DNA of 64,000 nt from Candidatus Obscuribacteraceae bacterium (GCA_044229845.1 JBGASG010000004.1:160001-224000), one strand, 5' to 3'; counted from the stretch's first letter, positions 5,345-20,800 are shown. The notes: generated from the sequence alone by a model not told the origin. Translations and numbers: made by a program.

Positions 5345-8300
5345 TTACTGCGGCAAGGCTGCCGCTCGACGGGTCAACTCTTCATCCAGACGATCTACTG
5401 TTTTCTGAGTCAACCAAGGTCGGACTATCTTGGCAAATTTTTGCGCGTCGCTGGTTGAAAGATCGCGAATGTAGTACGCGATGAAATCTTCATGATCGAT
5501 CTGCTTTCCCCCGGCTCTCAGAAATTCATTCTGATACGCCAGTGCTCGATCGAGGGGATCTTTGGACCTCAGAAGTCCAAAGAGAGTTTCGCTTAGGGGC
5601 TTTCCTTGAGACAGACTCTCTCTAACAGACGCGGCATATGTGGATAGCAGCTTTTGGAAATGAGCATCGACAGCCTGCGATTGGGCTGGATGTGACCAAC
5701 GCAATTGTTGGATCAGGTCGGCCAGACTGGTCAATACTTTGTCGTTAGCTTCCCCGCCAGCCTTAACACCAGCTTGAAATAACAGGAAAGCGCGTTCCTT
5801 GTCCGCGGCGTTCAATGCAGCCTCGAAAAATGCCTGCCCCTGTCCCTGAAATCCTTTATGCTGCAAGGCGTGCTGCAACACCTGGTCAGCTTGTGGCGTC
5901 GACAGCCCTCGCAGCGCGTCTTGGAGGGACTGCCCATTAATTGCCCCTCGCGAAGCCACAAAGTCGAGCAGCGCTATTCGCGCTTCCGGTGTAGGAATCT
6001 GCGCGAACCAGGATCTGACGACGCGAACGTCGGACGCATCTTTAACGATTGTCGGATTGAGGCTGACTTCCCGCAACAGATTCAATGTCGCCGCGCTTTG
6101 ATCTTGCTTGACCAGATAAGACAGCGCTTCCAGGGCAACTTTCTGATCACCGGTCTTAACACTTGATTCGACCAATTGGCGCGTGCGATCGGCAGGCAAG
6201 ATGCTATCAGCCACGGCCCGCCCCGATGGTGTCTCGCGCAGTTGTTGTAAGAATCTCAAGTGATTGACGATCTGCTCTTGCTGAGAGCCTGATGCGATGT
6301 CTTTCTCAAGTTGACGCCTGTAGACAGGCAAAATTTCCTTCTCCACGTAGGCGATTCGCTGTCGCAGTACTTCGGCAGTTACTCCCAACTTTGCAGGATC
6401 GGCTGTGTCCAGAACGCGCTTGAGGAAGGCGGCCGCCGCAATCGAGCGAGCCGGCGCATTGTGCACAAGCAGAGAAAATTCCTCGGCGCTACCACGCAAG
6501 AACTGCTCTCCGAAGTGCACGGCCCAGTTCTCGCCCACATCTTTGGTTGCGTACTCGCGAGCATAGAATCCGTTTCGTTCGACCCTTGCCGCCTGCTCGA
6601 AGGCAGCAAATTCTTCGGTAAATTTGAATTGCAGTGTATGGGCATTCTCGTGTTGCAAAACAAAGAGTAGCTGATCTGCTTTCGTGCCTCCGAAAAAGCG
6701 AATTTCAAATTGGGTGGACGCGTCAGCCAATACTCCATATGAGCCCTGCGGCTTGATTTTTTCCTCGGTTAGCTGAATGCGTTTTATTGCAGAGTCGCGG
6801 CTGGGTAGAAACGGCAGCGACTGCAAGACTTGTTCCGGCAATACAGCGTCACGCAATGGGTGTTTGCTGAGCGTCTCTTGAGCGATTCGAGCGGCCTGCG
6901 CCTTGACCGGATCCGTTGCATTGACTTCGGCCGCAGCCAAGCGCAGTTGCCTAATCTCATCCAGCTTAGCAGCGTAAGCCTTGTCGATCACAAACTCAAG
7001 ATCCGAGCCGCGCACCTTGTAAATCAGAACATCGCGCTCTTCAGTTGGAATTCGCTCGTTCTCTTTAAGCGGCGGGCGGCGAGCGTCAGAAATGGGTAAC
7101 TGAGCTTTGTCGGCGCGCGGTGGCTCTAGCAGCCTGTCCAGTTCAGGTTGATTGAGAGCGTTGCGCGGGCGAGTTTCATCAAATCCGAAGCGCCGCAAAA
7201 ACTCCTCTCCTTTTTGCCGCGCCACATTTGGGTCTAACCCCGCCTTCCTGACTATGCTATCGAGCGTTGTCCCTTCCAGATCACCAGGTACTTTCGATCG
7301 CAGAAACGGCAACGCGCCAGCTGTAAAGACGCCACCAAGAATAAAGGCGGTCAGGGCTCGTGAGAGTGTCTCGGCTGTGGGCTTGCCATCCAGTACTGAC
7401 TCCAATGCCTGAATCAAACTGTTGGACCCTCCGCCTATCAACGAGGAAGGTAAGAGTTCGTTCTTGATGAAATCGCGCACCAATCGGCTGCCGTGCTCTG
7501 CCAGTCCTTTTTCGACTGCCGACTTTAACGCGGCTTCCTGACCCGGCTTTGCGAAGGCCGCAACAAAACGCTCGAACTCCGCCTGATGGATTTTGCCACC
7601 ATTCTCGAATGAGTTTCTGACCAGCCTCGAAAGCTCAACCGCGAAAGCTCCCTGCCGCTCTTCAGGAACCAGACTCTTAGCCAGTTTTGCTGTGGTAAGG
7701 GCTGTCTGATCGCCGAGCTGCAGCAGCCTGGTCAGGTGCTCAGGTCTGAGGAAGTTGAGAGCCGCGAGCGACCCGCCCAGAAGCGCATCTCGCAATATAC
7801 GCTGATCGTAGTCCTGCCCCAGGAGCAGCGCCTTACCAATTGGACGAGCCTCGGCTGCCGCCAGAATGGCAATGGCTCTGAAGGCCAGGTGCACTCCCGG
7901 ACTGCCGGCGGGCAGGGTGGCCAGAGTAATTGCCAGGTCTACAACCAGGTCGGCTGTGGCAGTCTTGGAGTCGATAAATAATCTTAGAGCGTTCTGAGTA
8001 TTCTCTATGAGCCGCTGCTGTTCTTGAAGAGGCAACTCGGCAAAACGCTTTGATGCTTCTGCCAAACGAGCGGCGTGTTCTTGATGCGCATTATCAGCAA
8101 GCACACCCGTGCCGGTAAACAGAGCAGCGAATTCAGCAAACCAACCTCCTCGACTCTGATAATACTCGCGCAAACTTTGATCGAAAGCCTGTCTTTGATC
8201 GCGCGGTATTTCTTTGCCCAGGCGCCCAAGCTCAAAAGCATCTCCCTTGGAGAAAGTCGATTCTAGTGAGTGCTCAAATGAGCCGTAGTTTCTCTCGTAT

Positions 8301-10501
8301 CGATCTTTGAGAGCCGGGCGCAGCCCCGGTGGTAATTCGTCGAAAGCAGCTTTTACAGAAGCTTTGTCCTTCGCCGCGATCGCCAGGCGCAAACGATCAG
8401 CAGGGTCTAAAAAACCATTTTCAGCCGTCCGCAGTGCAATGGTTCTCTCTTCGGGGGACCAATAGCCTATGATGCGCTTTTGCAAGTCGCCGTCGCCAAG
8501 AAACTTTTGCCGTTCTTCGGGACTAGCATTAGCAATCTGCCTGGCAAAAGCAATGCGATCATAAGTGCCAAGACTTGCCTGCTGCGCAAGCGGCAAGCTG
8601 CCTTTCTCCAGAAGCGGCTTGACGTAAGCCTCAAATAAGTCAACTTTGCCATCGACCGCTTTTATTGGCTGCGGTCGATCGATTTGATTGAACAAATCTT
8701 TTGAAACCTTAGGAAAAGCCTGGCTTAGAGCCTCTTGCAGCCGACTATCTTCCGGACGCGGATTGAGTATGCGATCCTTCAGGTTCGGATCTTTTCTGAT
8801 TGCCTCTTGAATGTCTTGCAACAGTTGTCTGACTCGTTGCGGGTCGGTAGCAAACGTGCGAGACTCGGCCGCGAGAAGCAGTTTATCCGTCAAAGGAAGT
8901 TCAGGTTTACGCCCTTCGGCAGCCTGCTGCAAAAGGCTGCGCGCCGCGTCTTTGCCCACATCGCTGCGTACGAGAGAGAGTATGGTTTCATCTACTTCTT
9001 TTCTGTATTTCTCGTCGCGGGCATGTCTTTCCAGCGAACCTTTATCTATGCCCTCCAGCAGCCGCAAAACTCGCTCGTCGTCAGGAATACCGCGTTGTCC
9101 TTCTTGCTTCAAGTTGAACAAGAATCTACCTGAGGCAACAATCGACTGTTCGAAACTTCTCACCTCGGGAGCAAATTTTTGGTCCAGGATTCTCTCACTG
9201 CGGGACAGCGCATCACCAGATTGCAAAGTGCGCAGAAGCTCGCGCACGCGCTCCAAGTAGGAGGGATCTGATTTTGCTCTTTCCCAATCAGCGCGACTGA
9301 TGTTTTGTAGATCGCTTTGGATAGCCGTCTCGCTGCCGTTGCGAAAAACACCGCGCTGCTGAGCCAGCTTGGCGATCAACTCGCTGCCACCATCATTGAT
9401 GTAGTCAAGCCACTTGATCGCTTCCGTAGGGTTGGTGGCATCGGTCAGGACTTTTTTGGCGTCGTCGTATTCTTTCAAAGACTGCAGTTGGCTGGGATTC
9501 AGTTCGCCAGGATTGCCGCCCTTGTCGAGCCATTGCCTGAGCCTCTCTCCTTCCCCGATAGCCAGCCTGCGATCGGCTGGCAGTTGATCGATGGTCTGCT
9601 TTATCGCAGCTTCGCCGGTGGAGACAAGACCAATTTGCTCCTTGAGGAGCGTTTTAAAGGACAAGCGTCCGGTTTGCAGCAACTCTTGAGCCAGGCGCGA
9701 CTCGCGCGTCGGATCGTAAGAGACCTCGCCTGTGATTCTGTCCACAGACGGCTGCCCGAAAGTCTTGGTAATCTCGGCCGGACTGAGCTCCTTTTGCAAG
9801 CGCTGGCGTCCCGCTTCACTCGCCGTGCGTAACGCCCGCTCGAAAAGATGGAAGTTTCGCTCCGTCAGGGCAGCGCGAGCCAGATCTATATCATCTTGAG
9901 GAGTCCGCTGATCGGTGCCCTTCAGAAAGATGCCCAGCGCCTTTTGCTCCGCCTCTGACAGGCGCCCATGTTTGGCGAGCCGATCGAGAAGATTGGTGCC
10001 ATCGGTTTGCTGTGTTAGTAACTTGAGTTCGCGGATTTGATCGGAGTTGAGCGTCGACAGCGTATCGGTCAATTCCTTGAATGTGGTGCCCGGCTTCAAG
10101 AGACTCTCATTCAGTTCACGCAATAGACGCTCCACCCGATGCGCGTCGAATCTCAGATCTGCACTTCTGGGTTGTCTATCGGGAGCAGGCACCTCCGAAT
10201 TAGAGCCGCTGATTGCGTTTCGTTCTCCAACCAGGGTGACCGGCAGCGTCGGCAGGCGCTCGCCCGCCCTCAACAGATCTGGCTGGCCAAGAAACGCTAC
10301 CTGCGGCAGTGCGTCGCCACTGTCGCGAAGTGTCAGGGAGGGAAAGCCATGTCTGATTGGTTCCGCAGCGGCCAATGCCACCGCCGGCGGCGGCGCCTCG
10401 ACTCGCATATCTACTAAAGGAAAGACTAGTGCGGCTTCTGGCGCCGGTTCCGGCGCGTCCGTCCGCAGGGCGAGTTTAGACTCGGAATCCGATGAATCCA
10501 T
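5345..10501 (-). CDS. Large hypothetical protein (1718 aa): annexin-like helical repeats, central hydrophobic helices, C-terminal HExxH zinc-metallopeptidase-like region
   Basis: Uninterrupted 5.1-kb ORF. LQHENAH at 6638-6652, followed by YAREYATKDVGENWA. Hydrophobic Gly/Ala helices mid-protein. Confidence 0.75.
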   Translation of the reverse strand: MDSSDSESKLALRTDAPEPAPEAALVFPLVDMRVEAPPPAVALAAAEPIRHGFPSLTLRDSGDALPQVAFLGQPDLLRAGERLPTLPVTLVGERNAISGSNSEVPAPDRQPRSADLRFDAHRVERLLRELNESLLKPGTTFKELTDTLSTLNSDQIRELKLLTQQTDGTNLLDRLAKHGRLSEAEQKALGIFLKGTDQRTPQDDIDLARAALTERNFHLFERALRTASEAGRQRLQKELSPAEITKTFGQPSVDRITGEVSYDPTRESRLAQELLQTGRLSFKTLLKEQIGLVSTGEAAIKQTIDQLPADRRLAIGEGERLRQWLDKGGNPGELNPSQLQSLKEYDDAKKVLTDATNPTEAIKWLDYINDGGSELIAKLAQQRGVFRNGSETAIQSDLQNISRADWERAKSDPSYLERVRELLRTLQSGDALSRSERILDQKFAPEVRSFEQSIVASGRFLFNLKQEGQRGIPDDERVLRLLEGIDKGSLERHARDEKYRKEVDETILSLVRSDVGKDAARSLLQQAAEGRKPELPLTDKLLLAAESRTFATDPQRVRQLLQDIQEAIRKDPNLKDRILNPRPEDSRLQEALSQAFPKVSKDLFNQIDRPQPIKAVDGKVDLFEAYVKPLLEKGSLPLAQQASLGTYDRIAFARQIANASPEERQKFLGDGDLQKRIIGYWSPEERTIALRTAENGFLDPADRLRLAIAAKDKASVKAAFDELPPGLRPALKDRYERNYGSFEHSLESTFSKGDAFELGRLGKEIPRDQRQAFDQSLREYYQSRGGWFAEFAALFTGTGVLADNAHQEHAARLAEASKRFAELPLQEQQRLIENTQNALRLFIDSKTATADLVVDLAITLATLPAGSPGVHLAFRAIAILAAAEARPIGKALLLGQDYDQRILRDALLGGSLAALNFLRPEHLTRLLQLGDQTALTTAKLAKSLVPEERQGAFAVELSRLVRNSFENGGKIHQAEFERFVAAFAKPGQEAALKSAVEKGLAEHGSRLVRDFIKNELLPSSLIGGGSNSLIQALESVLDGKPTAETLSRALTAFILGGVFTAGALPFLRSKVPGDLEGTTLDSIVRKAGLDPNVARQKGEEFLRRFGFDETRPRNALNQPELDRLLEPPRADKAQLPISDARRPPLKENERIPTEERDVLIYKVRGSDLEFVIDKAYAAKLDEIRQLRLAAAEVNATDPVKAQAARIAQETLSKHPLRDAVLPEQVLQSLPFLPSRDSAIKRIQLTEEKIKPQGSYGVLADASTQFEIRFFGGTKADQLLFVLQHENAHTLQFKFTEEFAAFEQAARVERNGFYAREYATKDVGENWAVHFGEQFLRGSAEEFSLLVHNAPARSIAAAAFLKRVLDTADPAKLGVTAEVLRQRIAYVEKEILPVYRRQLEKDIASGSQQEQIVNHLRFLQQLRETPSGRAVADSILPADRTRQLVESSVKTGDQKVALEALSYLVKQDQSAATLNLLREVSLNPTIVKDASDVRVVRSWFAQIPTPEARIALLDFVASRGAINGQSLQDALRGLSTPQADQVLQHALQHKGFQGQGQAFFEAALNAADKERAFLLFQAGVKAGGEANDKVLTSLADLIQQLRWSHPAQSQAVDAHFQKLLSTYAASVRESLSQGKPLSETLFGLLRSKDPLDRALAYQNEFLRAGGKQIDHEDFIAYYIRDLSTSDAQKFAKIVRPWLTQKTVDRLDEELTRRAAALPQ

Positions 10502-14935: not shown

Positions 14936-16168
14936 GTGGCTACTGAAATCGAAGGTATGGTGTCGTCCGACCTGCACATACCGCCTGGTATCAACTATGA
15001 ATGCACCAGTTGCGGCAAGTGCTGCGGAGGCTGGGCCGTGCCCCTGACACCGGAAGACTACGACCGCATCGTCGAAGTCGACTGGGCGGCGCACCATGCC
15101 AGTTTCCACGCCAAGACCCTGTTTCGCGATCTGAACAAACACGAAAAGGTCGACACGCCCTACTCTCACAAGATAGTCTCGGAAACCGGCGTTTGTCCGT
15201 TTCTTGCCGACAATTTGTGTTTCATGCACAGCAAGTTCGGTTCGGAATTCAAGCCGACGATTTGCCAGCTGTTTCCTTATGCTTTCAGTGTCACTCCCAG
15301 TGGTGTCTATGCCACTGTCAGTTTCGTCAGCATGGGCAGCCTCTACAACTCAGGCCGGCCGCTTGCCGAGCAGCGAGAAGTGCTGGAGAAAAAGTATTCC
15401 GAATTCAAGCGACTCTACACAAACTACAAACCCGACTGGTCGAAGATCGAGCTGACCAAGGGACAGCCGCTCACGTGGGATGAATACCTGTCCATCGAAA
15501 AGGAGATGCTGGCGATTCTCGATGACACCACTTTGACGATCGAAAAACGCCTGCTCAAAATGTCATCGTATCTGGTATCACAGGTAAAAGCCGGGGGCAG
15601 CGCCGCCTCCGCCACCGCGGCCGCAGAATCGGCTCAGGACGCGGATGCGCTGACCAAGCTGGACCGGCACATTCTGGTCAACTTCCACCGCATGTACTAC
15701 CCGACCAAAACACTCAAACGCGGGCAAGCAGATTTCAGCATCGCCCGCCTCTTCGCTCAATATCACTTAGGAAGCGATAAGATTCTGGTTCCCGGCGAGA
15801 AATACAAAATTGCCGATCTCAAAGACTACCCGTGGCCGGATGATGATCCGGAAATGGATAGTCTCTTATATAGGTATATCTACTCTTTCATTTTCGGGAA
15901 GAAGTTTTTCGGAGCAGGTTTCGGGCACGTAAGCGTGATCGCTGGCTTCCATCACTTACTGATGCTCTACTGTCTGATTAAACTACAGTGCAAGGCCACT
16001 GCTAAATTCAGGGGAGCCATCCTACCTAATATGTTGGACCTGGCGCTGACTGTCCGCCAAACCGAACGCCAGGTCGGGGAGACGAAACTGGGCGGTTATG
16101 CCGCCGCCGCCTTCGAGATGCTGCTCTTCAGCCCCGGGCGGGCGCGGCGTTTCATCGCCAATACCTGA
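14936..16168 (+). CDS. YkgJ-family cysteine-cluster protein (FliB flagellin-methylase-like)
   Basis: YECTSCGKCC, CPFL...C.MH, KPTICQLFPY; ~410 aa with a helical C-terminal extension. Confidence 0.75.
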   Translation: MATEIEGMVSSDLHIPPGINYECTSCGKCCGGWAVPLTPEDYDRIVEVDWAAHHASFHAKTLFRDLNKHEKVDTPYSHKIVSETGVCPFLADNLCFMHSKFGSEFKPTICQLFPYAFSVTPSGVYATVSFVSMGSLYNSGRPLAEQREVLEKKYSEFKRLYTNYKPDWSKIELTKGQPLTWDEYLSIEKEMLAILDDTTLTIEKRLLKMSSYLVSQVKAGGSAASATAAAESAQDADALTKLDRHILVNFHRMYYPTKTLKRGQADFSIARLFAQYHLGSDKILVPGEKYKIADLKDYPWPDDDPEMDSLLYRYIYSFIFGKKFFGAGFGHVSVIAGFHHLLMLYCLIKLQCKATAKFRGAILPNMLDLALTVRQTERQVGETKLGGYAAAAFEMLLFSPGRARRFIANT

Positions 16169-16170
16169 CC

Positions 16171-16281
16171 TGTGCTGGATCCGCACATTTTCGAGCTCTG
16201 CGTGCGCACTTTTCGCATGTCGAGCCCCGTTTTAATGTCGAGGTGAGCACAGGAATGCAGAAAATGTGCGGATCCGGCACA
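16171..16281. repeat. 22-bp inverted repeat (21/22 match) flanking a 67-nt spacer
   Basis: TGTGCTGGATCCGCACATTTTC (16171-16192) and GAAAATGTGCGGATCCGGCACA (16260-16281). Confidence 0.8.
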
Positions 16282-16426
16282 CCCCAGCAGGGCGGACTCG
16301 CCGCCTCAGCCTGGGCCGATGGAGGCTAACTGTGCGAAAAGTCCAGGTTTATCGCATATTTGGTCCACCGCAGGTGCTTAGATTTGCCGCCAGTTGGGCA
16401 TTTAACCTTTACGGGGAACCGAACTC

Positions 16427-16498
16427 TGCACTATTTTTCGAAAATGTAGTGCAGATAACAACAGGGATGTTGACTACTGCTCAGTTCTAAGTTAGTCT
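16427..16498 (+). promoter_or_regulatory. Palindromic operator plus sigma70-like promoter of pilin-like copy 1
   Basis: TGCACTATTTTTCGAAAATGTAGTGCA (16427-16453), 16-nt gap, then TTGACT (16470)-17 nt-TAGTCT (16493). Confidence 0.7.
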
Positions 16499-16584
16499 TG
16501 CCAGACAGATTGCTTTCGGCAACCCTCGGTCCTCTTTTACTAAACAATCGAGCTTCTTTTCACCGCGTCAGGGAGATGCTTCCT

Positions 16585-17088
16585 ATGAAAACATTGTCCA
16601 AACTTACTATGGCCGCCGCTATGTCCCTCGCCCTCACCGCCCCAGCAATGGCGCAAGATGTGTTCGGAACAGCTGATACCGGAGCTACCGGTGCCACCAA
16701 CAGCAGCGGCAACACCACGTTGACCCAAACCCAAATGAACGGCGTACAACAAGCCCCAGAACTGCAAGGTGCCACCAACGGTACCGTCGGTCCGCAAGGC
16801 GATGATGCCACCGTCATTATGGGCGTCAACACAGCCGGTACGGTTCGCGTGAACAACCTCGCCAACTTGGAAGCGTTGCTCAACATCATCGCGAACGGTA
16901 TGGAAATTCTTGGTATCGCCTGGGGCGGACCGACAATGATCATGGGCTTCATGCACATGGCTGCCGGTACGCAAGATGCTATGAAGCGCGTCCTTTGGGG
17001 CGGCGCTGGTGTGACAGGCGGTCTCGCGACCCCTGGCTGCATCAACTGGCTCGTTGCATCGGCTCGCGACGCCAACCTGTTCAGCTAA
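16585..17088 (+). CDS. Secreted pilin-like protein, copy 1 (VirB2/TrbC-like hydrophobic hairpin)
   Basis: GGGAG RBS; signal peptide ending PAMA; polar T/G/N/Q-rich segment; two hydrophobic helices with a short loop. Mature 144 aa identical to copy 2. Confidence 0.8.
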   Translation: MKTLSKLTMAAAMSLALTAPAMAQDVFGTADTGATGATNSSGNTTLTQTQMNGVQQAPELQGATNGTVGPQGDDATVIMGVNTAGTVRVNNLANLEALLNIIANGMEILGIAWGGPTMIMGFMHMAAGTQDAMKRVLWGGAGVTGGLATPGCINWLVASARDANLFS

Positions 17089-17110
17089 TCGCTGTACGGA
17101 TCTAGATATA

Positions 17111-17141
17111 GGAAGGGGCGGGCAACCGCCCCTTCCGCTTT
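17111..17141 (+). terminator. Hairpin terminator after copy 1
   Basis: GGAAGGGGCGG-GCAA-CCGCCCCTTCC, 11-bp perfect stem; weak U tract. Confidence 0.7.
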
Positions 17142-17260
17142 GTCAGTCACTCCTCGACTTCATCGACTCCCATGGATAACCCTGTCACCGGCACTCCTTC
17201 AAAGTGCTACTTTGAATAAAGGATCACCCAGAGCATCTCCAACCACGTGGGTACGAGACC

Positions 17261-17557
17261 ATGAAACTGCCATTCTCCAGCCTAGTCTTGCGCGCTTCCG
17301 GCTTGCTGCCGGCGGTCTTTATGTATGCGAGCGAAGCGGCTCATGCCTGTGGTGGTAGTGGTGGTCCAAATCTCTTTCAGGTGGGTCTTCTGACTTTGGC
17401 TACCGCCTGCTGCCTGTTCGGCACACCCTTTATCGCCTTCGGGTTCATCAACTTTCTGTCCGGCGACACCAGAGGGGGCGCTCTGCGCGTCCTTACCTTT
17501 ATAGGTGCGATGGGCATAGTTGTGACCTCGATAGTCGTGCTCGAACACACCCACTAA
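17261..17557 (+). CDS. Small membrane protein, divergent paralogue of the pilin-like proteins
   Basis: FGTPFIAFGFINFLSGDTRGGALRVL aligns with WGGPTMIMGFMHMAAGTQDAMKRVL (G-x-P, GF, G, RVL). Signal-like N-terminus ending AHA. Confidence 0.55.
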   Translation: MKLPFSSLVLRASGLLPAVFMYASEAAHACGGSGGPNLFQVGLLTLATACCLFGTPFIAFGFINFLSGDTRGGALRVLTFIGAMGIVVTSIVVLEHTH

Positions 17558-17608
17558 GGGCATCCAGGCGCCTTTGCGCCGGCCGCCCAAACAAGTCCCC
17601 GAAAAATC

Positions 17609-17681
17609 TGCATTTTCTTCCGGAAAATGTAATGCATTTAACAAAATAACGGTTGACTTGTAAGGGGGTTGCACTTAATCT
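17609..17681 (+). promoter_or_regulatory. Palindromic operator plus sigma70-like promoter of pilin-like copy 2
   Basis: TGCATTTTCTTCCGGAAAATGTAATGCA (17609-17636), 16-nt gap, then TTGACT (17653)-17 nt-TAATCT (17676). Confidence 0.7.
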
Positions 17682-17773
17682 ATTGCCTACGGTTGCGTTG
17701 CAACTATTTTCTGCCCGAACCTTACTAACTATTCGAATACCAATTTCTCTCTCGCCTCGAGGAGGTTTCTTTT

Positions 17774-18280
17774 ATGCGTATTAACCTTACCAACCTCGCC
17801 CTCGCCGCCTCTACCGCCCTCGTACTCGGCGCTCCAGCAATGGCGCAAGACGTGTTCGGTACCGCTGACACCGGAGCTACTGGTGCCACCAACAGCAGCG
17901 GCAACACCACTCTTACCCAAACCCAAATGAACGGCGTTCAACAAGCCCCGGAACTGCAAGGTGCCACCAACGGTACAGTCGGTCCGCAAGGCGATGATGC
18001 CACCGTCATTATGGGCGTCAACACTGCTGGTACAGTTCGCGTCAACAACCTGGCCAACTTGGAAGCGTTGCTCAACATCATCGCCAACGGTATGGAAATT
18101 CTGGGTATTGCGTGGGGCGGACCTACAATGATCATGGGCTTCATGCACATGGCCGCCGGCACCCAAGATGCCATGAAGAGAGTGCTGTGGGGCGGCGCCG
18201 GTGTAACCGGTGGTCTCGCAACCCCAGGCTGCATCAACTGGCTAGTCGCATCGGCTCGCGACGCCAACCTGTTCAGCTAA
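17774..18280 (+). CDS. Secreted pilin-like protein, copy 2
   Basis: AGGAGG RBS; signal peptide ending PAMA; mature region identical to copy 1. Confidence 0.8.
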   Translation: MRINLTNLALAASTALVLGAPAMAQDVFGTADTGATGATNSSGNTTLTQTQMNGVQQAPELQGATNGTVGPQGDDATVIMGVNTAGTVRVNNLANLEALLNIIANGMEILGIAWGGPTMIMGFMHMAAGTQDAMKRVLWGGAGVTGGLATPGCINWLVASARDANLFS

Positions 18281-18308
18281 GTTTTTCCCCCGCCAACGCC
18301 AACCAGGG

Positions 18309-18330
18309 ACCTCCCGAAAGGGAGGTTTTT
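18309..18330 (+). terminator. Intrinsic terminator after copy 2
   Basis: ACCTCCC-GAAA-GGGAGGT-TTTT. Confidence 0.8.
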
Positions 18331-18360
18331 GGTATTTTCAAATCGTTTTGAAGACTCTCA

Positions 18361-18441
18361 AATCCCGCTCATAGAGCGGGATTCTGCTTTGCGCGAGCTA
18401 GGGTAAAGCGCCTTGAGTGCAAGAAACAATCGTCGTAAGCT
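18361..18441 (+). promoter_or_regulatory. Perfect palindrome plus sigma70-like promoter of pilin-like copy 3
   Basis: AATCCCGCTC-ATA-GAGCGGGATT (18361-18383); TTGAGT (18413)-17 nt-TAAGCT (18436). Confidence 0.6.
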
Positions 18442-18528
18442 CAGCTTATGGGTTGCGTTGTAACCCAGTCCACAGTACTTACTTACTACTTGTTTCACCA
18501 TTCATCTCCACAGGGAGGTCGTTTTACT

Positions 18529-19038
18529 ATGGGTAATTTTCTGACCAAACTCACACTGGGAGCGGGCGTCGGCTTGATGCTCGCTGCACCAGGCGCGATG
18601 GCACAAGACGTTTTCGGCACTGCCGACACCGGAGCGAGCGGGCTCCAGCACTCGAGCGGCAACACAACACTCACACAAACCACCATGAACGGAGTACAAC
18701 AAGCACCGGAATTACAAGGCTCGACTTTCGGCACCATTGGTCCACAACAGGAAGACGCCACAGTGATCATGGGCGTCAACACTGCCGGCACGGTTCGCGT
18801 GAACAACCTCGCCAATTTAGAAGCTCTGCTCAACATCATCGCCAACGGCATGGAAATTCTCGGCATCGCCTGGGGTGGTCCGACCATGATCATGGGCTTC
18901 ATGCACATGGCCGCCGGAACGCAAGATGCGATGAAGCGAGTCTTGTGGGGCGGTGCCGGAGTCACCGGTGGTCTGGCTACGCCAGGTTGCATCAACTGGT
19001 TGGTGGCATCAGCCCGCGACGCCAACCTGTTTAGTTAA
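18529..19038 (+). CDS. Secreted pilin-like protein, copy 3 (variant N-terminal segment)
   Basis: GGGAGG RBS; signal peptide ending GAMA; 10 substitutions in the first 50 mature residues, last 94 identical to copies 1 and 2. Confidence 0.8.
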   Translation: MGNFLTKLTLGAGVGLMLAAPGAMAQDVFGTADTGASGLQHSSGNTTLTQTTMNGVQQAPELQGSTFGTIGPQQEDATVIMGVNTAGTVRVNNLANLEALLNIIANGMEILGIAWGGPTMIMGFMHMAAGTQDAMKRVLWGGAGVTGGLATPGCINWLVASARDANLFS

Positions 19039-19086
19039 TAGATAGAACAAAGCATTTCATCCCTCGAAATGAGGAAAGGACCAATG

Positions 19087-19108
19087 ACCTCCCGCAAGGG
19101 AGGTTTTT
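19087..19108 (+). terminator. Intrinsic terminator after copy 3
   Basis: ACCTCCC-GCAA-GGGAGGT-TTTT, same stem as the copy 2 terminator. Confidence 0.8.
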
Positions 19109-19282
19109 GGTTTGTGAGCCCGTGGGAGCGCAGGGGGTCTTAATCGCCACCCGGGAAAAGGCACCGAACAACGGGATTGTCATGAAGCTCGAGCGAGTTA
19201 CGTTATACCGGGATTTTTTTCCACGACACGGTTGAGACCTCTCCTCAGCTCTAAAATTGTTGAAAGCGGGAGACACTGTGAC

Positions 19283-20029
19283 GTGACTGACACATCGGAC
19301 AAAACGAGCAGAGCTACACCGGGACGAGATCGTCTTGCGAAAGCTCGGGTTGCGGTCGTTGGAATTGAAGAGCATACGTTGATCGCGTTGGCGCAGCTGG
19401 CCGACGCCGGCATTGGTTTCATCAAAGTCATCGATGACCGCCAGGTCACCGCTGAAGACATTTCACGCGCATTCTTCTTTTTCCAGAACGACGAAGAGAA
19501 CCAGCCGCGGACTAGCGCCGCTCGCAATCTGATTTACAGAGAGAACAAGACAACGAAAGTCGAAGTAATCGACCAGAAATTCGACGCTCATAATGCTGAG
19601 CAAGTACTTGGCGGAGTTGACGTAGTCATTGACGGACTGAGCAATTGGCAGGACAAACTTCTGGCATCCGATGTTTGCATGCAATTGAAAACACCATTGG
19701 TGCATGCCGGATTGAGCGGTCTCGACATTCAGGTGTTTTGCATGATTCCCACAAGGTCGGCATGCCTCAGATGCGTGTTCGCCAAGTTGGGTATGGAGGA
19801 TTTTGCCGCCACCACCAGTGCCACCAATAATGGACATCCGCGACTCGGTCCTCTGGCTGCAATCGCCGGATCCCTGCAGGCGCTTGAATGCATCAAATTG
19901 CTCGGGGACATTGGCACAGTTTCGCCAACCCGTTTAATGAAGATCGACGGTCTACGCGGCGACATGTTGGACTTCCGCGAACTCACGCCACGCAGCGACT
20001 GTCCCGATTGCGGTCCCTCTCGTCTCTAA
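19283..20029 (+). CDS. ThiF/MoeB/HesA-family E1-like protein with a degenerate glycine loop
   Basis: RLAKARVAVVG, LADAGIG.IKVIDD, DVVIDG, ACLRC, LQALECIKLL, C-terminal CPDC. GTG at 19283 with a GGGAG RBS (ORF open from 19232). Confidence 0.8.
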   Translation: MTDTSDKTSRATPGRDRLAKARVAVVGIEEHTLIALAQLADAGIGFIKVIDDRQVTAEDISRAFFFFQNDEENQPRTSAARNLIYRENKTTKVEVIDQKFDAHNAEQVLGGVDVVIDGLSNWQDKLLASDVCMQLKTPLVHAGLSGLDIQVFCMIPTRSACLRCVFAKLGMEDFAATTSATNNGHPRLGPLAAIAGSLQALECIKLLGDIGTVSPTRLMKIDGLRGDMLDFRELTPRSDCPDCGPSRL

Positions 20030-20041
20030 CCGGCGGCGGGT

Positions 20042-20800
20042 TTAGTCTTGCGAGGAAACTTTGACGTCAGGCGACGCTTGCTTCAAAGCCGCAATTATTT
20101 TCGGAGCGCGATCGCCGCAACGATTGCGGATCAATGTTTCGAACAGAGCCCATTGACGCTGAGTTTCTCGAATAGCCAGTTCGCGGGCGATGTTGTAGTA
20201 AGTCGTCTTGCCTGCGACTTTCTTTCCTTGATCCGTGGTCGGATTGTCTTTGCTGAAGTTCACTGCGTTGTCCAACGAATCCGCGGCATTCGCAACCAGT
20301 CCTTCATATCCACCAGGAACCCGGGACCAGTCCACCAGTGGAATCTGCAAGGGGTCGCCTCTGAATTGCGGTCCCTTGAGCGAAAGCTCCACATAATTTG
20401 ATTGGCTGTAAAAGTCCTGCGCGCTATGCAACAACATCCCGAAGTGACGTAACGCATTGGCGCGGCTTTCCTGATCGGTGTCCGCTTCGCATGCATAATT
20501 CAAGGCGCTCTTCTTCTCTCGATCGATATACGAGAGAGCCGACTCCACCGTTTTAGCCGCAAAGTGTCGGCGGCTATCTTTCGCGCCTTCACTTTCTTTT
20601 TTGTCCTGAGCCTCGTTGGCGTCGATGATCAACTTCAGATTCGAGCTGCCGATGGTCCCCCGCAGTCCTTCTTCGGTGATCTCCGCGTGCACCTTGCCGC
20701 CCTGTCCGTCCGAAGAGCTGAATGCCAAGCCTGGTGAGGGCTGCATCGAAATGAGCGTCACTGCCAACCCCTTTACAAGGAGATCCGAGTTTAATTTCAT
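20042..20800 (-). CDS. Secreted protein with Het-C/VWA7/Zn-phospholipase-C-like motif
   Basis: Signal peptide; HAEIT, RRHF, FGMLLHSAQDFYSQSNYVE resembling G..LH..QDFY.HSN.VE. Confidence 0.6.
   Translation of the reverse strand: MKLNSDLLVKGLAVTLISMQPSPGLAFSSSDGQGGKVHAEITEEGLRGTIGSSNLKLIIDANEAQDKKESEGAKDSRRHFAAKTVESALSYIDREKKSALNYACEADTDQESRANALRHFGMLLHSAQDFYSQSNYVELSLKGPQFRGDPLQIPLVDWSRVPGGYEGLVANAADSLDNAVNFSKDNPTTDQGKKVAGKTTYYNIARELAIRETQRQWALFETLIRNRCGDRAPKIIAALKQASPDVKVSSQD

Follow-up and report, generated by a model that had tools for sequence, protein, structure and literature searches.

A 64 kb window from a genome of Candidatus Obscuribacterales (G000:C19:160001-224000 in our numbering of genomes and contigs) carries an array of three genes for short secreted proteins that end in a helical hairpin, with a FliB-related gene upstream and a ThiF-like gene downstream. 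The source names of the close homologs are also those of Ca. Obscuribacterales, and the array is real and order-defining. The array probably encodes a VirB2-type protein, the major subunit of a filament that is assembled by an order-wide chromosomal machine resembling a type IV secretion system (T4SS), most likely the machine encoded by the gene cluster that we term cluster A. The hairpin sequence is also found as the tail of larger proteins, an undescribed use of pilin-like sequences that points to a new route for addressing proteins to a filament.

The array genes lie on the plus strand at 16585..17088 (copy 1), 17774..18280 (copy 2, protein P0001), and 18529..19038 (copy 3), and encode proteins of 167, 168, and 169 residues. 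Each product has an AxA|Q signal-peptide-like end, a T/G/N/Q-rich polar segment, a segment with a conserved motif, and a Gly-rich helical hairpin. All three share a 112-residue core with the C-terminus WLVASARDANLFS, which closes in DANLFS. The first-pass annotation had described three same-strand genes of this build, and this description is confirmed on sequence and the genes are transcribed. The core protein of copy 2 is that of copy 1, while copy 3 carries five core substitutions. Across the 112 codons of the core, copies 1 and 2 are separated by 27 synonymous and no non-synonymous changes, which argues that selection at the protein level maintains their identity; copies 1 and 3 differ by 46 synonymous and 5 non-synonymous changes. 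The AlphaFold model of the array product has two helices (model residues 61-102 and 108-139) with a predicted local distance difference test (pLDDT) score of ~89-96, and an N-terminal part of low confidence. The hairpin is mildly hydrophobic, with sampled 19-residue Kyte-Doolittle maxima of 1.3 and 1.0.

These features are shared by the short homologs. The AxA|Q-type motif is found in 112 of 120 by pattern match, and the C-terminal D|ANLFS in 116 of 120. A lysine in the loop of the hairpin is present in all 120, and in 105 of 118 the mature chain has no other lysine. The Asp-Ala pair at positions -6/-5 occurs in 119 of 120 short homologs and 94 of 114 long carriers of the core, against a background of 29 in 4517. 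P0001 has 1033 near-length homologs, and matches to it were obtained in 38 of 39 other genomes of the order and 0 of 21 other genomes of the class. A 31-row profile of the core matches 35/35 genomes of the order and 0/115 other genomes of the class, and finds 620 matches among 1.84 billion representatives. The plasmid and phage collections yielded two chance-level matches and no core match, respectively.

RNA contigs from four studies match the unique 5' part of copy 1 with no differences and cover copies 1 and 2. Copy 2 is spanned in four runs, and short pieces fall on copy 3 in at least two of the four runs, as well as on the FliB-like gene, the ThiF-like gene, and an open reading frame (ORF) at 17261..17557. 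The array had also been called highly expressed. The RNA contigs do cover it, and their depth is much greater on copies 1 and 2 than on the neighbours, but contig depth cannot rank genes and is therefore only a hint of high expression. Terminator-like stem-loops on the plus strand follow copy 1 (17111..17142; an 11-bp GC-rich stem, a 4-nt loop, and a short T run), copy 2 (18309..18331), and copy 3 (19086..19115). The third was computed and the other two were read from the sequence, the first being missing from the computed list. With such a hairpin behind every copy, a single transcript for all five genes is improbable.

The ORF at 17261..17557 (+, 98 residues), a membrane protein gene between copies 1 and 2, had been taken for a divergent fourth member of the array. 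It has no detectable family membership: the family profile gives it 2.1 bits (E = 390), and the genome holds no paralog of it. Among 41 neighbourhoods it is found in the same-genus genome only, which also has a frameshifted second copy. Inserted genes are common in the spacers of the array, reaching tens of kb in one genome (G131; L040, L047, L051, L109, L110, L113-L116), and the array has the look of a hot spot for insertions. Away from it there is a fourth short gene of the array type, close to a transposase-like ORF (G000:C14:119241-119765), and a Ser/Asp-rich secreted protein bears just the hairpin part of the core (G000:C1:154971-155549).

The proposal that the array encodes a pilin is strengthened by the VirB4 genes of the order. 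The profile PF19044 finds two full VirB4-family ATPases of 805 and 941 residues in this genome, all on contigs other than that of the window, and matches in 61/61 genomes of the order. An apparent lack of VirB4 in the genome, obtained with PF03135, was a false negative. PF12696 (VirD4) has no match in this genome, where cluster B (see below) is cut by a contig edge just inside VirB4. These results are consistent with the earlier remark that the window holds no VirB4 or VirD4 gene; relaxases, also included in that remark, were not the aim of any search. Mapping of 21 regions around the VirB4 genes defines two paralogous clusters, A and B. In cluster B the order is secreted proteins, c16 (138-148 residues), a long VirB6-like gene, DUF2225, a small membrane gene, VirB4-B, c12, and a VirD4-like gene (PF02534). 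Cluster A begins with secreted proteins, a gene with a weak OEP/DUF4352 match, two VirB6-like genes, and DUF2225, followed by a PrgI-like gene, VirB4-A, and two single-helix proteins. Position and architecture, and no significant family match, underlie the labels VirB6-like (whose match is weak, at E = 0.086) and VirB8-like, and the PrgI-like match has E values of 0.005-0.07 in relatives. VirB4-A is 75-86% identical in 34 of 35 genomes of the order, and only matches of 21-27% are seen in 13 of 115 other genomes of the class.

Cluster B has a pilin-like gene within it and cluster A has none. The pilin-like gene is c16, whose product has an AxA|Q signal end and a Gly-rich hairpin, is 83-97% identical, is sometimes in tandem, and occurs in 35/35 genomes of the order and 0/115 others. 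Its sequence is unrelated to that of the array family. In this genome, cluster B lies at the edge of contig C13 (G000:C13:1-12700), and it is found order-wide, with c16 ending in GGLGGGL (L166-L167, L171, L174, L177, L180, L181, L184). In the 10 cluster A loci, five of them whole clusters, the sole shared small two-helix ORF is the PrgI-like gene. Since a pilin gene is expected at the place that c16 takes in a VirB4-VirD4 cluster, the simplest reading makes the array the pilin that cluster A is missing, and we think it likely that the array supplies the major subunit, presumably the pilin, of this cluster. A second, stand-alone copy of VirB4-A (66% identity) lies at G000:C13:100089-102914 with no cluster around it, and a VirB4-A match in another genome has two internal TAA stops (G131:C1:183274-185685).

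The array is also tied to its two flanking genes. The first-pass annotation had seen a Cys-cluster gene upstream and a ThiF-like gene downstream, and both assignments hold, with 35.9 bits to PF03692 and 127 bits to PF00899; the link to them had rested on adjacency in one genome. In the neighbourhood survey an array gene lies no more than three genes downstream of the FliB-like gene at 34 of 36 ortholog loci (one per genome, with three paralog loci excluded), the remaining two stopping at a contig edge, and no more than three genes upstream of the ThiF-like gene at 33 of 34 loci. This is slightly above background synteny, in loci that were picked around array, FliB, or ThiF matches and so are not a blind sample. 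With the linkage order-wide, unlinked arrays, which would speak against modification by these genes, are not what the relatives carry. The best sign of a real three-part unit comes from a second family of loci (L055, L059), in which both flanks differ and yet the three parts remain together. Downstream of the ThiF-like gene, a minus-strand gene at 20042-20800 encodes a secreted protein with a VWA7 N-terminal/Het-C-like domain, found there in 23/34 loci. Elsewhere in the window, a minus-strand ORF of 1718 residues at 5345-10501 resembles a polymorphic secreted protein.

Several observations weigh against the assignment of the array to a T4SS-like filament. The core has no match in Pfam or NCBIfam, and a search of PDB sequences with the core profile gave 0 matches. 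A single member of the 31 reaches T4SS_pilin, at E = 0.061. In profile comparisons with hhalign, the array family gave probabilities of 0.2-4.8% against TrbC (13 rows), T4SS_pilin (9 rows), and c16 (27 rows), no higher than those of the reversed and unrelated-helix controls; the positive control of TrbC against T4SS_pilin likewise failed, at 2.4%, so that these comparisons had little power. Among the matches listed by Foldseek and VIA-align there are generic hairpins and no pilin, the best having Z = 8.2 and a root-mean-square deviation of 4.4 over 82 aligned residues. The predicted mature chain of ~144 residues is long beside the 69-74 residues of H-pilin (PMC12037004). The array adjoins no VirB4 gene in 56 mapped array or FliB-type neighbourhoods. 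In this assembly, cluster A is without the PrgI-like and DUF2225 genes and the 5' end of VirB4, and its c15 carries a frameshift; the genome of the same genus does have these parts. The co-occurrence of the array and VirB4-A is a single clade-level event and fits cluster B equally. As for the flanking genes, background synteny is nearly as strong as their linkage, with upstream anmK in 23/36 and guaB3 in 30/36 loci and a downstream vwa7-like gene in 23/34 and an exonuclease or TPR gene in 27/34, and the FliB-like gene has been lost at one locus (G018).

In a rival account, the array would encode the subunit of another filament, for instance a second pilin of cluster B or a Tad pilin, with the flanking genes as bystanders of general synteny. 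Both cluster B and two Tad loci are present in this genome, and the background synteny, together with the terminator-like hairpins that separate the genes, fits such an account. We regard it as improbable: a pilin-like gene is already part of cluster B, the array proteins do not begin like type IV prepilins on inspection, and the three-part unit is kept in the second family despite its different flanks.

The array product has the Sec-type signal pattern and the helix-loop-helix with a basic loop expected of a pilin, and the genome encodes VirB4, PrgI-like, and VirB6-like proteins, though not next to the array and with cluster A incomplete in the assembly; a position inside a T4SS cluster, also expected of a pilin gene, is not found. 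Among neighbours of the hairpin in the ESM Atlas, seven of the eight rows shown belong to DUF2976, DUF4134, DUF3852, TrbC, DUF6750, or T4SS_pilin, at 0.81-0.85; we take the DUF families to be VirB2-like and treat these neighbours as leads only. PF04956 is above its cut-off in 1 of 49 genomes of the order, and PF18895 was searched in 301 genomes of the phylum, this genome being the sole member of the order among them. A four-copy complex prediction of the subunit scored 0.02 and is informative in neither direction. The pilin reading of the first-pass annotation gains from the presence of VirB4 in every genome of the order and from the parallel of c16; homology to VirB2 itself is not established by the direct comparisons.

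The array proteins share with VirB2, TrbC, and TrhA the signal peptide, the helix-loop-helix with a basic loop, and an end (D|ANLFS) that resembles D69|AGIPD of TrhA. They differ in a longer N-terminal segment with a second conserved motif, in an array that is not on a mobile element, and in having no significant sequence, profile, or fold match to these pilins. The H-pilin TrhA is reported to be cyclised once the five residues AGIPD behind Asp69 are lost (PMC12037004), and the T-pilin is not cyclic in cryo-electron microscopy (PMC9905601). No TraF-like peptidase gene lies beside the array, and the only candidates in the genome are two tandem LepB-type genes. Since the T-pilin is not cyclic and no TraF-like gene adjoins the array, cyclisation at D|ANLFS is only a lead.

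The closest known parallel is found in the Patescibacteria, for which chromosomal, relaxase-poor T4SSs with VirB2 arrays are reported (PMC12102498; PMC12857230). Both lineages have a chromosomal lineage-wide VirB4 system with PrgI/VirB3-, VirB6-, and VirB8-like components and tandem arrays of secreted hairpin proteins, which are sometimes interrupted. The Patescibacteria arrays average 25% identity and are mostly near virB4, whereas the array copies here have 88-100% core identity and are far from virB4, are flanked by FliB-like and ThiF-like genes, and share their sequence with the tails of VIT proteins. The T4SS of Vampirovibrio is of the T type (PMC4451040). The literature searched contains no description of this Obscuribacterales system, with the limit that subscription papers and supplements may list its genes in tables.

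The core is not confined to short proteins. In 245 of 250 longer or divergent homologs it stands at the C-terminus, and in 202 of 250 the body belongs to the VIT family. The tailed VIT membrane proteins have 900-1200 residues, with N-terminal membrane helices and a VIT domain in the body; vWA domains are annotated on 5 of 120 homolog rows. This genome encodes two of them (C18:13456-16896 and C19:81986-84796), and both bodies are 26-27% identical to a paralog that ends in a PEP-CTERM-type tail and lies beside an exosortase gene (G000:C18:138458-142425, L098). The exosortase is closest to XrtQ/XrtT, under the cut-offs. In another genome (G036, L121) the equivalent of this paralog has the N-terminal motif of the array proteins (N-motif) plus a PEP-CTERM-like tail. 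No exosortase gene was seen beside the tailed VIT loci examined, and exosortase is patchy in the order (36/61 genomes) while the core is universal. The VIT proteins of the PEP-CTERM, MSEP-CTERM, and exosortase N types (TIGR04477, TIGR04286, TIGR02921) have the same body, but the tail here is a pilin-like hairpin from either of two unrelated families. None of the 120 short homologs, and none of the 114 long carriers of the core, has the VPEP motif, single helix, and basic cluster.

The second family of tails is that of c16: all 12 long ORFs retrieved place it behind a VIT body, with the end motifs conserved and the helices variable. At L219-L230 these are VIT membrane proteins of 939-1063 residues. 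Proteins of 212-244 residues with a Cys-rich N-terminal part and a divergent c16-type tail have also been observed (L231-L234, L237, and G000:C11:28859-29503), and the two that were checked have no Pfam match. The tails of the array type likewise keep the motifs that flank the hairpin and vary in the helices, which are more hydrophobic than those of the short proteins (mean maxima of 1.8 and 1.8 against 1.3 and 1.1). Parts of the sequence occur separately as well. The N-motif stands alone in five further ORFs of the genome, each of which starts, on inspection, with a signal-like or membrane segment, and five shuffles gave no match; it is also found in vWA, TPR, and VIT proteins of relatives. 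Of two adjacent membrane Ser/Thr kinases (G000:C3:136440-141634, L036), one has a membrane-proximal variant of the N-motif and the other two membrane-proximal copies of the C-terminal motif.

The tails follow the array of their own genome. At five variable sites they match the major subunits of their own genome at 3.52 positions, those of other genomes at 1.90, and the tails of other genomes at 1.81, a contrast reached in 0 of 20000 permutations. The direction is as expected in 19 of 23 tails; the permutation value overstates the case, since related genomes are not independent. The comparison used 23 of 28 tails from 15 genomes, and a stricter first version kept 14 of 27. Recent conversion at the DNA level was considered as the cause and is unsupported, with third-position identity of 0.45 within the genome, 0.38 to other genomes, and 0.47 between majors of one genome. 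An older conversion is possible.

These observations bear on a rival in which the core acts, independently of any T4SS, as a tag for sorting or polymerisation in the envelope. The short proteins would then be an abundant inner-membrane or surface-layer scaffold, to which the tail tethers VIT and other exported proteins in place of PEP-CTERM and exosortase. The C-terminal position of the core and the VIT bodies, the paralog with a 26-28% identical body and a PEP-CTERM-type tail beside exosortase, the kept motifs around variable and more hydrophobic helices, the N-motif on its own in further ORFs, and the patchy exosortase all speak for it. PEP-CTERM-type signals consist of one helix with a basic end and have no hairpin. 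Furthermore, c16 is grafted in the same way and yet lies inside a VirB4-VirD4 cluster, which ties such tails to type IV pilins. We therefore consider the independent tag unlikely and retain the VirB2-type subunit as the preferred explanation.

The upstream gene (14936..16168, +) encodes a 410-residue CxxCxxCC (YkgJ-type) protein related to FliB, a predicted cytoplasmic Fe-S enzyme and candidate modifier of the array products. It scores 45.4 bits against the FliB model NF038110, under the cut-off of 85. The C-x2-C-x2-CC motif and three further Cys/His sites are invariant in 37 rows. Its structure model (pLDDT 89.9) has no PDB fold match at Z >=5 or E <=0.001. FliB of Salmonella is a flagellin lysine methyltransferase that uses S-adenosylmethionine and a [4Fe-4S] cluster bound by CX4CX3CC (PMC8598068). 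Likeness to it lies in the N-terminal Cys cluster, the weak full-length match to NF038110, and the gene's place beside a gene resembling that of a filament subunit; the motif differs (CX2CX2CC, not CX4CX3CC), the score is under the family cut-off, and flagellin is found in 0 of 61 genomes of the order. In an order without flagellin, the FliB-like protein must act on something else, and the conserved loop lysine is a possible target. Modification of the subunit by this protein, with the single conserved loop lysine as the obvious target, can be put forward tentatively. Paralogs with 33-43% identity and no array neighbours (G000:C1:486222-487448, L068, L069, L072) are also encoded, with two to four in most genomes of the order.

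The downstream gene (19232..20029, +) encodes a protein of ~265 residues with an uncertain start and a ThiF/MoeB fold. It shares with ThiF/MoeB the E1 fold sequence and both CxxC pairs, but the glycine loop, SNLQRQ, the ATP-binding Lys, and the Mg-binding Asp are all replaced. In comparison with Escherichia coli ThiF (PDB 1ZUD), GLGGLG has become GIEEHT, SNLQRQ has become EDISRA, RPK has become QPR, and CTDN has become GLSN. In 26 orthologs, NLxRQ is kept in 0, the second Gly in 5, the motif Arg in 5, the ATP-binding Lys in 3, and the Mg-binding Asp in 4, the functional roles of these residues being those we presume for the family. The zinc-binding CxxC cysteines are kept in 26, 26, 25, and 25 of the 26, and the C-terminal half is well conserved. 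Since the ATP-binding and adenylation residues are gone in nearly all orthologs, the protein cannot adenylate, and the earlier suggestion that it adenylates protein C-termini falls. Judged by its sequence, it is a conserved pseudo-enzyme, and it could act as a binding or scaffold partner instead of an enzyme. The genome has a separate gene, at another site, for a canonical MoeB.

A tandem array of precursors next to an Fe-S protein and an E1-fold protein also brings to mind ribosomally synthesised and post-translationally modified peptides (RiPPs) or circular bacteriocins matured by the two flanking proteins, the other branch of the first-pass annotation. The ThiF-like protein has a weak match to TIGR03603 (E = 4e-5), inactive E1-like scaffolds occur in thiazole/oxazole-modified microcin (TOMM) systems, and cyclisation could take place at the conserved D|ANLFS end. 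However, the core is near-invariant across the order, unlike the diversifying cores of antimicrobial peptides, the signal is of the Sec type, and the same core is the membrane tail of 1000-residue proteins. The 41 neighbourhoods share no transporter, protease, or immunity gene cluster in BLAST comparisons with the genes of the window and with one another, with the inserted genes only partly annotated. Together with a ThiF-like protein that cannot adenylate, this makes the peptide precursor account very improbable.

In the mechanism that we propose for the VirB2-type subunit, the array protein would be exported by Sec and lose its signal peptide, and the hairpin would then lie in the inner membrane, its two conserved ends facing outwards and the Lys-Arg loop facing the cytoplasm. 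Extraction and polymerisation of the subunit would fall to VirB4-A together with the VirB6-like and PrgI-like proteins. By means of their tails, the VIT proteins may join the pool of subunits or the platform on which these are assembled, either as minor subunits or as tethered partners. The FliB-like enzyme, if cytoplasmic as predicted, would meet the loop lysine of the subunit.

A fuller scheme combines two domesticated T4SSs, pilin sequences grafted as addresses, a dedicated maturation pair, and possible cyclisation; taken as a whole, we find it somewhat unlikely. Each near-invariant pilin would be an address, and its copies on VIT proteins would replace PEP-CTERM. Pilin fragments on kinases and on vWA, TPR, and beta-propeller proteins would direct these to the appropriate filament. 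In system A the pilin would be matured by the FliB-related enzyme, acting on the cytoplasmic lysine, and by the dead E1-like scaffold, and it may be cyclised at the Asp that lies five residues before its end.

The array identifies what is likely to be the main surface structure of an uncultured but widespread order, whose members are non-photosynthetic relatives of cyanobacteria from sludge and soil, and it supplies peptide targets for metaproteomics and cryo-electron tomography. A FliB relative in organisms without flagellin would extend a poorly understood family of Fe-S methyltransferases to a new substrate. The sharing of tails gives a handle on the function of bacterial VIT-domain proteins. 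Finally, two unrelated pilin-like families that serve as interchangeable tails on a PEP-CTERM-type body would connect protein sorting with type IV pili in a new way.

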